Shown in pieces: positions 18,547 to 62,882 of a DNA stretch of 64,000 bases (its first letter is position 1; every line of letters begins with the position of its first letter). Position numbers and translations under genes: made by a program. The stretch spans positions 47,616,001-47,680,000 of the forward strand of contig OZ024746.1 of assembly GCA_964016885.1 (NCBI GenBank), written 5' to 3'. The notes under the pieces are model-generated. The model was not told the origin of the DNA and did no database searches. It was given only the letters and a program-made list of their open reading frames with translations. This stretch comes from Eledone cirrhosa. Taxonomy: Eukaryota.

Positions 18547-18740
18547 GGAACGAGTAGGACCCCGACGGCTGAGCTCAAGCCGTTTCGACGGCTAATCCTG
18601 GACTAGAATTTATTCCAGAATTAGCCGTCGAAACGGCTTGAGCTCAGCCGTCGGGGTCCTACTCGTTCCTATTACCCACTCTACTACCCTAAGTATTGAG
18701 TACTTTGGTGCGTTATGGTTCACCTGGTTCCTTACCACAT
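18547..18740 (+). mobile_element. Fold-back mini-element family A, copy 1 (hairpin + tail, hammerhead 3' half)
   Basis: Near-perfect ~50-bp inverted arms (18547-18669) followed by a ~70-bp tail, with (TA)n on both sides. Contains GAAA-CGGC-ttgagctca-GCCG-TC. Confidence 0.85.
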
Positions 18741-19322
18741 ATATTATATATATATTATATATATATATTATATATATATTATATATATATATAATATATA
18801 TATTATATATATATATAATATATATATAATATATATATTATATATATATATATAATATATATATTATATATATATATATATAATATATATATTATATATA
18901 TATAATATATATATTATATATATATATATAATAGACAAGTGTACTTCGCAAGAAGGGAAGCAGAGGAAGGTTTAGGAAATTAGTATCGGTGTACATGCAA
19001 CATAATATAAAAGACAGTAAATACAGGTGTGTGCGTGATAATAAAGTTTTACTTCATGGAAGTCAAAGGCATTAAATATAAGGATTTGTTACCCGATGGT
19101 CATAATACAAGGCTGAAGTTGGTAGAGACATCTTAGGCTCTCATCTCAGGCTGCAAGTTGCATTGTGCTTGGGAACGAAAGGGTCGTCAAGAAGGAATCA
19201 TCACAAGCTAAGGTCGAAGGTGTTACCACTTCAGGAATCAGGAGGCGAGAGAGATATTATATATATATATATATAATATATATATTATATATATATATAT
19301 AATATATATTATATATATATAA

Positions 19323-21436
19323 TAGACAAGTGTACTTCGCAAGAAGGGAAGCAGAGGAAAGAAAGTTCAAGCATGTACTACAACGCGAGGACCAAAAACG
19401 TGAGGTGTTCAGGATTGCTAGGCAATGTGTCAAGGAAAGCCGTGATATTGTCGGGGAGAAGTGTGTACTTAATGATGACGGCATACTTGCCATCACCGAC
19501 GCTGATAAGAAGGTAGCTTGGAAGTGTCACTACGAAAGGCTACTAAATGAGGAGAATAAATGGGAGAAAGAAAGTCTCCCCCACATCGACCCAATAGAGG
19601 GACCAGCAGTGTTAGTCGAGGGTAGTATAATAAGTAAGGCAATCAAAGATATGAAGACGGGTAAGGCGGCTGGGCCTTCGGAAATAGTTGCTGAGATGCT
19701 GAAGGCATCTGGTACAGTGGGACACACCATGGTTACCCGGATAGTTAACCAAGTCGTACAGAATGGGGTTGTTCAGAAGGACTGGCGTAACAGCATCATC
19801 GTTAACTGTTATAAGGGTAAAGGAGATGCCCTAGATAGGAGTAACTATAGAGGCATTAAATTAATCGACCAGGTCATGAAGGTCACGGAAAAAGTAATAG
19901 CGCAACTAATCAGAGAGAGAATTGATCTAGATGAAATGCAGTTCGGGTTTGTGTCAGGGAAAAGTACCACAGACGCTCTTTTCATTGTACGACAACTACA
20001 GGAGAAGTACTTAGCTAAAAGTAAACCCCTATACTTAGCTTTTGTTGACTTGGAGTTCAAGACCGGCTGCCCATGGGAACTCCTATACACAGATGACCTA
20101 ACACTCATAGCTGAACCAATGGCCGAGCTAGAGAAGATATTCCAAGCATGGAAGCACGGCCTAGAATCAAAAGGCCTTAAAATTAACCTGGCTAAGACTA
20201 AAGTTCTAGTTTGCAAGAAAGAAAATAAGGCGGCAGTCCCTTCCGGGAAGTGGCCATGCTCAGTGTGTAGGAAAGGCGTAGGTAGAAACTCCATTTTGTG
20301 TCCCAAATGCAAAGTATGGGTGCATAAAAGATGTAGTGGGATCACAGGTAAGTTAACTAAGAACATAGATTTTACATGTGGCCGGTGCTCTGGTGCAATA
20401 AGTAGCAGCAAGTGCCCACATATATACTAGCTCTTTAAACTGCGCAGAGGGTTCTATAGAAATAGTGGACAGCTTCCGTTACCTGGGTGACAAAATCAGC
20501 AGTGGGGGAGGGTGCTCTAAAAGTAAAGTAGCTGGAGTCAGAACTGGATGGAAAAAGTTCAGAGAGCTTATACCACTATTAGCCGCTACTGGGTTCTCCC
20601 TAAAAATGAAAGGCAGGTTGTATGATGCCTGCATACGAACAGCAATGTTGCATGGCAGTGAGACCTGGGCATTGTGTGCAGAGGATATACGCAGACTAGA
20701 GCGGAACGAAGCTTGCATGCTCCGCTGGATGTGTAATAGTAATATACGTGAACGGCAAAGCATAAACGAACTAAGGAAAAAATTAGAAATAAGAGGGATC
20801 AGATGTTGTTTACTCGAGAGAAGGCTACGTTGGTATGGTCACGTGATGCGCATGAAAAACGATAGCTGTATAACAAAGTGCAGGGCAATAAAGATAGACG
20901 GTAGCCGCGGAGTAGGCAGACCCAGAAAAACCTGGGATGAGCTGATAAATTCCGACCTCACACACTTACACCTCTCCAAGACAATGTCACTGGACCGAGA
21001 CCTTTGGCGGTACTCAGTAATAGAGAAGACCCGCCTTAGCTAAATACAAAGTAAAACCTACTACAGTCAGTAGGCATCTCTAACAATATACACCCCCGTC
21101 CCACCCACCCCACCCCATCCACACCGCCCCTTTCAATGTAAAGTTATGTTGGTGCCACAACATCCAGGCCGAAACAAATGAGATCGTGTAGGTGTCACGA
21201 CAAAAAAACACACAGTCCACGCTGTAATGTGGCCGTGTAGGCAACACGGTAAAAACCTCCCAGCCCCACACTGTAAATGTGGTTGGTGTTAGGAAGGGCA
21301 TCCAGCTGTACAAAACCCGCCAGACAGTCCTATGCGAGCAAGACAATCACTCTTGCCTCAAGTGGGAAAACCCCCGTCCAAACCCATGCAAGCGTGGAAC
21401 ACGGACATTAAACGTTCATGATGATAATGATGATGA
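19323..21436 (+). mobile_element. 5'-truncated, internally deleted RTE-clade LINE with a Cys/His finger insertion
   Basis: ORFs 19330-20430 and 20465-21043 show the RT motifs KAAGPS, NYRGIKL, QFGF, LAFVDLE and LLYTDD, plus FRYLG, HGSETW, RRLRWYGHV and GRPRKTW. The 3' UTR ends in (GAT)n. Confidence 0.95.
19330..21043 (+). pseudogene. Reverse transcriptase pseudo-ORF of the RTE LINE
   Basis: The RT core is deleted at ~20055 (LAFVDLE joined directly to FKTGCPWELLYTDD, KAFD and QG motifs missing). There is a frameshift near 20410-20465. Confidence 0.9.
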
Positions 21437-22130
21437 TATATAATATATATATTATATATATATATATAATATATATATTATATATATAATATATAATATA
21501 TATATTATATATATAATATATAATATATATATTATATATATAATATATATAATATATATATTATATATATATATATAATATATATATATATAATATATAC
21601 ATTATATATATATATATAATATATATATTATATATATATATATAATATATATATTATATATATATATATAATATATATATTATATATATATAATATATAT
21701 GTTATATATATATATATAATATATATATTATATATATATAATATATATATTATATATATAGTATTTACGTATCGAGAAAGAGAGAAAAAGGAGGGATAGG
21801 TGATACATATAGTTATTTGCCAAGTAGCGTATGCCATATATATAATATATATATAATATATATATTATATATATATTATATATATATATATTATATATAT
21901 ATTATATATATATATATAATATATATTATATATATATAATATATATTATATATATATAATATATATATTATATATATATAATATATATATTATATATATA
22001 TATAATATATATATTATATATATATATATAATATATATATTATATATATATATAATATATATATTATATATATATAATATATATATTATATATATATATA
22101 TATAATATATATATTATATATATATAATAT

Positions 22131-60513: not shown

Positions 60514-62348
60514 GAGCAACTGGGGTCCCACGCGCAGGCCGCCCCACAGCCCCCGGGCGAAACAGATTGAGTCTAAAATCTGTCCGAGAGATGAAATGTT
60601 TTTGATACAGTCAGTATAAAATTAATATATCATACTGTATGGTTAAGATTACATTTTTAAAACATTAGTGGTATCTTATACCCTCGTAATTTTAGACACG
60701 AGATTTACTGTGTTTATTGACACACACACACACACACACACACACACACACACACACACACACACACACACACACACACACACACACACACACACACACA
60801 CATATATATATATCAAGCGTTAAACTAATATATTTCTTCATTGTACTGTGCTGTGAGGCCAGTATTGAAACGGCTACTCCACTATACAGTGCTGGCTATA
60901 ACTAGACCCCAAAACCTATATATATATATATATATATATATATATATATATATATATATATATATATATGTGGTCTCATAACTCCTAGAATCTTAGGGGC
61001 GCCGAGTCCATTCCTCTCCAGGTTTGAGTACAGCAGATTTCTTCCAGAGAAAGATAGAAAGTGAGAGAGTGTAAATGAGAAAGAAATGTAGAGGAACAAT
61101 CTACCTCAGTACTAGACTGGTACTTTTTTTTATTGACCTCTGAATGTCAATAAAAAATAGTATAATAAAATTTCATAATATGTATATACCTGTTGTATAT
61201 CGAATAATATACGAGTTGTTTATGAAAAACATTTGAAAGCCTTTAGCTATGAATTTTTGATGGTTGTGTCCATCCTTGTCTCAGCAAAAGCAATGGGAAA
61301 TAATTGATACCGTGTTGTTTCTCGCTTGTTGGTGGTTATCAAAGCTACATATCGCCCTGATTCTGCTGAGAATAAAATAAACTAGACAAATAAATTTTTC
61401 GCTGATGTATATGAGCTTATGAAGCACATTTGCATATTTAGCCGATTCCGCTAAAATATAATAATAAAAAAAATTAGTGCTGGTGCTCCAACGAAGGGTG
61501 TTCAAATGTTTTTTTAAATAAATATCCTGTACATTATCCGATATACAACACGTACTTATATATGTATCACGCTATGCTGGAACACCAATACTAATAAATA
61601 AAAATATATATGCATTAACAAATATCTTGTTAAAAAGCATTTAAAGAAACAAACATTTAGAAGTCGATTTTTCCGACCTAATACTTATCGAGCTGTTTAT
61701 TGTCTAATCCCTATCTTACGGGAGATAGACGAAGACACGGACACACACACATGCACACATAGACATACACATACACACACACACACACACAGACATACAC
61801 ACATGCGCAGGAATACACACACAGACATACATAGATGCTCACACACAGACACACACACACACACACACACACACACATACATACACACACACACACACAC
61901 AGACACACACAGACACGCACACACACATATGCACAGGCATACACACACAGACGCACTCACACATGCACAGGCATACACATACACGCACACACACACACAC
62001 TCTCTCTCTCTCACACAAACACAAATTTCACAATGAACATCCAAATATATCTATCTATGTGTGAGCGTGCGTCCATCCTTGCAATGGCTGCCTAGAATGG
62101 CGGCTTCGCAAATGATTTATATGATACAAATACAATTTATAATTGCTGGAATTGTACTGCAGTAAATTTAGTGCAAATTACTTTTATTCAAAAGCACACG
62201 TGTTTAAGAATACGTAAAATACGTAAACTATTTCGGCTAGAACAAACTGTTTCAGCTAAAAACATACAAATAGATAAATTTTGTATTATAATACATACAC
62301 ACACACATATATATATATATACATATACATACATACATACATATATAT

Positions 62349-62687
62349 ATAGATGAGATTCTACAGGACTAGAACTGTTTCATTCTTTAGAAATCATCAG
62401 GAATCACTATATATATATATATATATATATATAAAAATACAAATATAAATTAGCGAGAATCGTATTTCGGCTCAGGAATTAATATATATATATATATATA
62501 TATACAAACGGAAAAAATGAAACGAAATTTCATTTCCCACTCTTAGTACGGCTGTTATATATATATATATTCCTGAAACAGTTCTAGTCCTGTAGAATCT
62601 CATCTATATTAAAACTTTTATACTCTGCTATGTATTGTGTACCTTACTTACTGTGGTTACTTCCGATTCAACCCGGAATAACTTACT
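62349..62687 (+). mobile_element. Family E inverted element interrupted by nested (TA)n and mini-elements
   Basis: Left arm at 62349-62382 mirrors 62574-62608, with the tail running to 62687. Confidence 0.75.
62357..62405 (-). ncRNA. Type I hammerhead motif (family E)
   Basis: Minus strand: gattc-CTGATGA-tttc-taaa-gaat-GAAA-CAG-ttctagtc-CTG-TA-gaatc, with a 5-bp stem I, 4-bp stem III and GUA triplet. Confidence 0.82.
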
Positions 62688-62700
62688 ATATATATATATA

Positions 62701-62882
62701 GGAACGAGTAGGACCCCGACGGCTGAGCTCAAGCCGTTTCGAGGTCCAGAATTAGCCGTCGAAACGGCTTGAGCTCAGCCATCGGGGTCCTACTCGTTCC
62801 TATTACCCACTCTACTACCCTAAGTATTGAGTACTTTGGTGCGTTATGGTCCACCTGGTTCCTTACCACATTTCCTTCGTTA
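62701..62882 (+). mobile_element. Family A copy 6
   Basis: Nearly identical to copy 1 apart from a loop deletion. Confidence 0.88.

Follow-up and report, generated by a model that had tools for sequence, protein, structure and literature searches.

Short hairpin repeats of Eledone cirrhosa are head-to-head insertions of a Hydra-clade Penelope-like element, with arms likely made as separate cDNAs

A Hydra-clade Penelope-like element (PLE) has left head-to-head insertions of continuously varying length in this genome, and the six hairpins found in the window (the whole 64-kb stretch of DNA that was analysed) are the shortest of them. Judging from the sequence of the copies, each arm is likely a cDNA of its own, primed at one cut end of the (TA)n target, run off the 5' end of the element RNA and then joined to its partner. 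The centres of the copies carry an untemplated extra base, which suggests that each arm is likely a separate cDNA ending at a capped RNA start and not the product of fold-back.

Six insertions in the window

The six copies are present where the sequence-only reading had placed them, in the order (TA)n, arm, centre, arm, tail and (TA)n, and all of them share the start TA/GGAA. The tail is one-sided and comprises 80 nt, or about 70 nt in copy 18547. Compared with each other as whole sequences, the copies gave BLAST E-values of 1e-35 or lower, so that a chance likeness is excluded. They are listed below, with signed positions given relative to the hammerhead cut.

Copy 1, 18547..18740, forward strand, with positions determined on the sequence by comparison with long copies: antisense arm 18547-18605 (+17 to -41), filler of 8 nt, sense arm 18614-18669 (-38 to +17) with the cut predicted to fall between 18652 and 18653, and a shortened tail, 18670-18740.
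Copy 2, 43443..43601, forward strand: antisense arm 43443-43501 (to -41), filler of 5 nt (arm sequence repeated), sense arm 43507-43521 (from +3, without the half-hammerhead), tail 43522-43601 (80 nt).
Copy 3, 52183..52354, reverse strand: antisense arm 52354-52314 (to -23), sense arm 52313-52263 (from -33), tail 52262-52183 (80 nt).
Copy 4, 53880..54041, forward strand: antisense arm 53880-53920 (to -23), sense arm from about -25 to 53961, tail 53962-54041 (80 nt).
Copy 5, 54276..54468, forward strand, from a diverged subfamily: arms from 54276 up to 54388, whose stem II/loop sequence differs, tail 54389-54468 (80 nt).
Copy 6, 62701..62880, forward strand: antisense arm 62701-62742 (to -24), filler of 1 base, sense arm 62744-62800 (from -39), tail 62801-62880 (80 nt).

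The mirrored substitutions reported earlier for the two arms were seen in copies 53880 and 54276. A hairpin turn in stem II, proposed for all six, holds for both arms (3' strand) only in the copies at 53880 and 52354; the turn of 18547 lies in loop II (-41/-38) and that of 62701 at -24/-39. The half-ribozyme described for both strands of intact copies is missing from the right arm of 43443, which begins at +3.

The parent family

The tail-less end of the family occurs at least 17,596 times genome-wide, compared with 0 for a reversed control. The outer ends of the insertions are fixed at +17 and +97, TAT being next in the element at each. Head-to-head pairs span from about 115 nt to several kilobases, long inverted pairs are common, and the second arm always ends at the +17 site even where it reaches kilobases in length. 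Short copies dominate and intermediate lengths are scarce (86/98 under 330 nt). Tandem units begin at -40 to -44 or at +1; long tandem templates exist, together with a few short tandem arrays. Two of 98 arms adjoin sequence from a different hammerhead or PLE family, and partner arms from other subfamilies also occur.

A parent with the 5' half of the hammerhead and a PLE ORF had been predicted and does exist: the 5' half gave 2,379 exact matches, with 101 long copies among the matches listed. The family ORF comprises a reverse transcriptase (RT) and, at its C-terminus, an endonuclease of the GIY-YIG type, with the motifs RWR, DKT and CxCx5C, following the published definition of the Hydra clade (PMC8557442). 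KRLRWRTFF (the N-terminal motif of RWK type) and SDKT (DKT for DKG) were identified in long copies L076 and L034, and the family protein also carries CNCPDRSMC (the CxCx5C linker) and, close to the conserved E and N, CNLC (CxxC) and CKH (CxH), the CCHH finger being absent as judged by eye. Homologues number 835, and in a tblastn with one of 713 aa the natural copies together covered residues 1-713, YIG and the endonuclease tail among them. The assignment relies on these motifs and on a resemblance, judged by eye, to Hydra proteins in the literature, as a Pfam search with seven family fragments and three homologues and a PDB sequence search gave no RT or GIY-YIG match. The (TA)n target, pseudo-LTR tandems, inverted copy and tail are all seen in the family, and the repeat-to-repeat unit of L034 is about 3.06 kb, slightly over the published "generally under 3 kb". 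Three family motifs had no match in the one supplement of PMC8557442 that was searched, where line breaks could mask matches. These copies are a new Hydra-type PLE family, of which stub-sized palindromes are the main product.

The hammerhead of the family

As had been recognised from the window, the arm corresponds to a type I hammerhead's 3' half, and the three-stem fold is complete in the long copies, where stems I-III enclose core boxes 3-9 and GAAA and the NUH cut site is present. In the short copies the apparent 5' strands of stems I and II are the mirror of the arm, so that the window alone cannot show the ribozyme and the parent copies do. Neither the 64-kb window nor four parent loci gave an Rfam match for a hammerhead. 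The CUGANGA core expected for the parent gave way to UUGANAA/CUGANAA, that is, U3-A8 or C3 with A8; the literal CUGANGA motif has 41 matches, none with an intact stem II, all of them due to chance or to chimeras formed with other families. The C3/A8 mismatch core was identified in 12/40 long copies. Core position 7 is free (A, C, G or T) and the others are constant within the searched pattern; covariation is minimal, with a two-sided change in 1/24 pairs, among 12 similar copies. Stem III has 5 bp and loop II about 30 nt.

Junctions near -40

The arms have a common boundary within loop II, some 40 nt upstream of the hammerhead cut. Ends fall at -33 to -46 in 68/98 tail-less arms and 55/68 partner arms, and the boundary is read through by 19/98 arms, about one in five or six. 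In hundreds of loci only 0-1 nt separate two complete arms. Where both arms reach -40 with one base between them, this base is C:G in 402 loci compared with the templated A:T in 62. At the position control for the filler base in this class, one base inward of -40, C:G was found in 4 of the first 50 of 219 loci (Fisher p 9e-31).

A count by eye of the first 50 of 289 loci gave 35 in which both arms have C, 5 in which both have G and 10 with a mixture. The 40 single-C loci examined span at least eight subfamily blocks; 37 of them have one tail, and in these the C belongs to the tailed arm in 21 cases and to the tail-less one in 16. None of 81 read-through arms has C at -41 on the cDNA strand. 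These counts show the boundary base, as read from genomic copies, to be an untemplated C on the presumed cDNA strand. Against this stand a templated C at -41 in one subfamily (9/81 long arms), whose block was identified in 5/40 single-C loci, and G at -41 in 1/101 long copies (by eye).

Other junctions are less regular. Many arms pass -40 by 1-5 nt in templated or A-rich sequence, the first base is A in 45/100 arm readings, and cDNA ends at the boundary carry A runs. This overshoot and the spread of ends over -33 to -46 may reflect several starts or trimming. Fillers of the type CCAG could have been templated by the partner arm.

Junctions at the cut site

A second class comprises 364 loci in which both arms end at or beside the predicted cut site (+1). 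The fillers of 30 fetched loci were none in 6, a single A/T in 7, template-compatible in 5 and other in 12; CG microhomology could be the source of the zero-filler junctions. One subfamily accounts for 13/30 of this class, compared with 2/66 ordinary short copies.

Proposed mechanism and alternatives

The element RNA would start, capped, at A-40 within loop II of its own hammerhead, so that of the ribozyme just the 3' half would be present at its 5' end. The RT would begin at two internal sites near this end, one for each target strand, and copy the cap as C, after which the two cDNA ends would be joined with trimming, microhomology or small fillers. The +1 class would come from RNAs that a complete hammerhead had cleaved, and the same two priming sites, used in a downstream repeat, would yield the long copies. 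Start site, cap and cleavage are all read here from DNA junctions. Precedents are the two RT start sites and the cleavage of both target strands found for a PLE in vitro (PMC11167929), the extra cap-derived G of L1 (PMC11702581) and the internal promoter of Penelope (PMC2377424). Against it counts that no RNA reads of the Anolis PLE end at the hammerhead cut, according to the parts of PMC11167929 used here. No report of cap-derived bases at PLE junctions, or of a start site inside a PLE hammerhead, was found in the open-access literature, and subscription papers or bioRxiv supplements could hold one.

A wider reading of the same copies seems to us to stand slightly better than an even chance. 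Tens of thousands of fossil junctions would record PLE insertion, in which an asymmetric complex primes both cut (TA)n ends at two fixed RNA sites and the cDNAs reach the cap and join end to end. The start inside its own hammerhead would leave a half-ribozyme unable to cut in cis, the +1 class would stem from U3-A8 hammerhead cutting in the germline, and the self-priming model for head-to-head PLEs would be replaced.

The alternative that survives best, although unlikely, also has two cDNAs but supposes a longer RNA on which the RT is blocked at -40, by tertiary structure or a bound protein, and takes the C as ordinary terminal addition. The read-through arms, the long tandem templates and the A runs at the boundary agree with a block. 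Against it stand an added base that is C at -41, mostly A/T or none at +1, and not C one base inward, and tandem units restarting at that same boundary; the -40 site, moreover, appears to resemble the initiator consensus.

Fold-back, in which one cDNA would fold on stem II or on a micro-palindrome of loop II and prime its own second strand, is improbable and is largely refuted for the -40 and +1 classes. The arms belong to the same subfamily, within one mismatch, in 55/66 copies as compared with 13.9 expected, which counts against the two-cDNA reading in so far as fold-back predicts it too; loop II is a near-palindrome beside stem II, and some centres overlap by microhomology. Turning on stem II, as first suggested, predicts that the sense loop II is kept between the arms, but most arms enter loop II antisense. 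The 0-1 nt between complete arms is too short for a priming hairpin, and an untemplated C on both arms or on either, partners from other subfamilies or families, and a second arm of up to kilobases stopping at the constant +17 site all speak against it. A related self-priming proposal has been published (PMC3846280).

Less probable still is that long head-to-head insertions were shortened by later deletion of the palindrome centre, although this may hold for a minority of copies. The frequency of long inverted pairs and recurrent microhomology joints (AATT-centred in 8/50) are consistent with it; such a deletion does not add a position-specific untemplated base on both arms, and two further points speak against it, the scarcity of intermediate lengths and the fact that the +1 class, with its identical junction sequence, is biased towards one subfamily.

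It is very improbable that the hairpin is a non-autonomous element (MITE, Helentron-type or retrozyme-like) amplified as one unit, the second possibility raised by the sequence-only reading. The very high copy number, the uniform outer ends and the few short tandem arrays would suit such a unit, but nearly all centres differ between copies, and identical centres are found with different subfamily arms and in both orientations. A MITE, other DNA transposon or Helentron derivative was rejected as the ends run into a PLE ORF and the centres are not shared; target-site duplications are unreadable inside (TA)n. A non-LTR retrozyme was rejected as the window copies are head-to-head with half hammerheads and the short arrays start inside or behind the hammerhead. 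Least probable of all is that the G before -40 stems from an upstream exon or leader spliced to the AG at -40/-39, since despite the likeness to a 3' splice site and the intron of D. virilis Penelope that ends at its own hammerhead (PMC4209133), no recurrent foreign or upstream sequence was found beyond -39 in 107 arms.

Meaning

The origin of inverted PLE structures and hammerhead cutting in vivo are named as open in passages of PMC8557442, PMC3846280 and PMC11167929. This family supplies thousands of independent junctions with base-level signatures. The model predicts that the RNA starts with a cap at -40, that +17 and +97 are the priming sites, that cleavage falls at +1 and that C is added only on capped templates. 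If true, the joint insertion reading would replace self-priming as the model for head-to-head PLE insertions. PLE stubs can thus pass for MITEs where hairpin repeats lie in (TA)n, a point of relevance to the repeat annotation of such genomes.

Comparison with known systems

Twin priming in L1 inverts sequence without duplicating it, unlike here, where both cDNAs would cover the same stretch from two fixed internal sites. Shared with L1 are the second priming at the other target end, end-joining at the inversion and the extra G at full-length 5' junctions (PMC11702581).

The head-to-head junctions of Adineta vaga Penelope (Arkhipova et al. 2013, PMC3846280) share the inverted terminal repeat, the optional tail, palindromes at the inverted junction and a motif in the repeat that resembles an initiator. 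The explanation proposed there was self-priming on an antisense template, whereas the junction bases here point to two cDNAs of a sense template.

The PLE hammerheads of Schistosoma (Cervera and de la Pena 2014, PMC4209133) have the same U3-A8 core covariation and palindromic loop III, and those elements carry dual hammerheads on opposite strands, 100-700 bp apart. They are minimal, in contrast to the 5-bp stem III and the loop II of about 30 nt with a putative start site found here.

Poseidon of Anolis, studied in vitro (Frangieh et al. 2024, PMC11167929), shares two internal RT start sites delimiting the tail, cutting and extension of both target strands, an AT-rich target and a predicted dimer. 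It belongs to another clade, and inverted copies and the RNA 5' end are not addressed in the parts of that work used here.

The closest anatomy is that of the Hydra-clade PLEs (Craig et al. 2021, PMC8557442). With 80 nt, the tail here is longer than the 30-40 nt of that clade, the hammerhead has a U3-A8 core and a long loop II in place of the canonical form (C3-G8), and that of Hydra-1_Obim, the listed octopus member, differs from the family described here. Shared are the single ORF with RW(K/R), DKT, CxCx5C and a C-terminal endonuclease, the size of about 3 kb, the (TA)n target, the hammerhead in the terminal repeat, partial tandems, the inverted 5'-truncated copy and the tail at one end. The inverted copy and one-sided tail of this layout, which the sequence-only reading did not assign to a named family, are published PLE anatomy (PMC8557442, PMC3846280).

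Copies in the window and the parent element

Numbering counts from the predicted hammerhead cut: the C of GUC is 0, the base after it is +1, and upstream positions are negative. The six copies noticed in the sequence-only reading (window 18547, 43443, 52181 on the reverse strand, 53880, 54276 and 62701) were confirmed on the window sequence with the layout described there: (TA)n, an antisense arm (the 3' half of a type I hammerhead) from +17, a sense arm up to +17, a tail of 80 nt (in copy 18547 about 70) and (TA)n. In two copies both arms turn inside the 3' strand of stem II, and in two others the centre extends into loop II; the sense arm of copy 43443 begins only at +3. 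The tail-less end, an arm passing at +17 directly into (TA)n, gave 17,596 exact-pattern matches in the 3.0 Gb genome against 0 for the reversed control.

A parent with CUGANGA upstream of the arm had been expected. The literal genome search returned 41 matches and no intact hammerhead because the parent core is UUGANAA, as seen in the longer arms of locus L031, where CCCC-UUGANAA-G and stem II (a U3-A8 core) precede the arm. The U3-A8 5' half has 2,379 exact matches in the genome; in 40 parsed long copies U3 was identified in 28, C3 in 12 and A8 in all. A type I three-stem fold is predicted for several single copies and for a 12-copy alignment with minimal covariation in the stems, the internal loop of stem I being the subfamily-variable block. 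Rfam recognised no hammerhead in the window or in four parent loci. In some subfamilies (L083, L134, L188, L194, L198 and others) the core reads CUGAGAA, pairs C3 against A8 as a mismatch, or is shifted in register. Copies reading through behind the tail (151 exact matches) enter an ORF, and long copies, many of which span 0.1 to 4.4 kb as head-to-head pairs tailed on one side, encode reverse transcriptase and endonuclease with RWR, DKT, CxCx5C, CxxC and CxH.

Other repeats of the window
54112, forward: hammerhead-like motif, CUGANGA core, between (TA)n
58269, reverse: the same type of motif
51861, forward: the same type
52941, reverse: the same type
62400, reverse: the same type
33241-33822 and 34280-34861: inverted repeat of 582 nt with 99% complementarity, (TA)n-bounded
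23278-30481: interrupted (TA)n array, 7 kb
34971-37350: interrupted (TA)n array, 2.4 kb
58770-60231: TGG-rich minisatellite, 1.5 kb
37352-37551: N gap, 200 bases

The CUGANGA-core motifs belong to three or more additional repeat families and are probably the ends of other PLEs (Penelope-like elements); the 582-nt repeat may consist of two copies of some other family standing head to head. At L086:1079-4762 a distinct PLE-like ORF (weak RVT_1 match) forms its own 1.3-kb inverted repeat.

Arm ends and source of the two arms

The sample comprises 98 tail-less arms of at least 40 nt, as the pattern requires, taken at the earliest-listed of the 17,596 matches (the last two listed excepted). All are on contig C1, and two of the 98 are opposite ends of a single element. 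Loci are shorter than 330 nt in 86/98 and carry their own tail at the far end in 80/98. By an extension score that may overshoot by a few bases, 68/98 left arms and 55/68 scorable partner arms stop within the interval -33 to -46, and 19/98 and 10/68 read past this boundary. Centres are nearly all distinct, and repeated ones carry different subfamily blocks. Fold-back on stem II, the origin first proposed, predicts a sense loop II kept between the arms, an arrangement that is not typical of these loci.

In 55/66 copies the two arms differ by no more than one mismatch, against 13.9 expected by shuffling, so both usually derive from the same source. A few copies pair two known subfamily blocks. 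An arm is joined to another family in 2/98, with further chimeras among selected loci of the CUGANGA search. In eight loci (L001, L007, L011, L017, L022, L023, L121 and L162) family arms stand head to head with foreign partners between (TA)n runs, the partners being other hammerhead-bearing families or another Hydra-like ORF. Copies as a rule carry exactly one tail, which implies that the two primings are coordinated; one RNA might be copied twice, or two RNAs might be held together, for example via the palindromic loop III.

Untemplated base next to -40

Both arms reach -40 with 0-6 nt between them in 2,359 loci of the genome. A single intervening base is C:G in 402 and A:T in 62, whereas the templated base at -41 is A:T in most long copies (G in 1/101) and the cDNA strand of 81 read-through arms carries 69 A, 9 G, 3 T and no C. 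One base inward, the first 50 of 219 control loci, read by eye, have the templated base in 46 and C:G in 4 (p 9e-31 against the junctions of arms ending at -40). Filler is bounded on both sides by C or G in 289 loci; the first 50, also by eye, have C on both cDNA ends in 35, G on both in 5 and a mixture in 10, and all five G-on-both loci have the start expected of the subfamily with a templated G. The partner arm may have been the template for some of the longer fillers.

Among 40 fetched single-C loci, five of which belong to a subfamily with a templated C, 37 carry one tail only; in 21 of these the C belongs to the arm with the tail and in 16 to the arm without it. The loci span at least eight subfamily blocks and are thus not one amplified unit, which argues against the earlier suggestion of a non-autonomous hairpin element. 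A splicing or leader origin of the extra base is very unlikely, no leader or exon sequence being found past the boundary in 107 arms examined. From these DNA junctions we infer that the RNA is capped and begins at A-40, although A continues past -40 in 45/100 arm readings. The site resembles an initiator consensus. In L094, L096, L131 and L144, 12-20 A follow on the cDNA strand just beyond -40, which suggests slippage, or bases added repeatedly where the template ends.

Junctions at the cut site

In 364 loci both arms terminate at +1 or a few bases from it. Thirty were fetched (25 scored as tailed), with no filler in 6, a single A/T in 7, template-compatible filler in 5 and other filler in 12. 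The lack of C as the typical added base at these junctions fits an uncapped RNA end. One subfamily block accounts for 13/30 against 2/66 ordinary short copies. Short tandem arrays restart at -40 to -44 or at +1, as expected of a reverse transcriptase jumping from the template 5' end. These junctions, counted at +1 only, make hammerhead cleavage in vivo likely, although zero-filler joints could also arise by CG microhomology. L173 and L179 are short head-to-tail arrays (period 257 nt, from -43 into the ORF start), a form through which retrozyme-like repeats may arise from a PLE; listed match positions give another of the family at G000:C3:214146640-214147754, period about 273 nt.

Comparison with known elements

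The ORF features of the long copies are of the type defining the Hydra clade (PMC8557442). The hammerhead of the published octopus member marks it as a different family, and the supplement of that paper gave no match to three family motifs, though line breaks could hide one. An inverted truncated copy with a one-sided tail is standard PLE anatomy (PMC8557442, PMC3846280), and a tail located between two reverse transcriptase start sites was already known (PMC11167929). By its sequence the element is a new family of known anatomy within a known clade; parent, ORF and head-to-head anatomy with one-sided tail, taken alone, are an ordinary PLE finding. The U3-A8 core is common to this family and Schistosoma PLEs, where the covariation is already published (PMC4209133).

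The junctions touch two open questions, the origin of head-to-head junctions, earlier ascribed to self-priming on an antisense template (PMC3846280), and hammerhead cleavage in vivo. For PLEs, the open-access literature searched showed neither cap-derived bases nor transcription starting within the hammerhead; an internal promoter is known for Penelope (PMC2377424). Full-length L1 junctions carry an extra G ascribed to the cap (PMC11702581), a precedent for a cap origin of the untemplated C on the cDNA strand here. In the Anolis PLE, hammerhead cleavage reportedly left no in vivo trace (PMC11167929).
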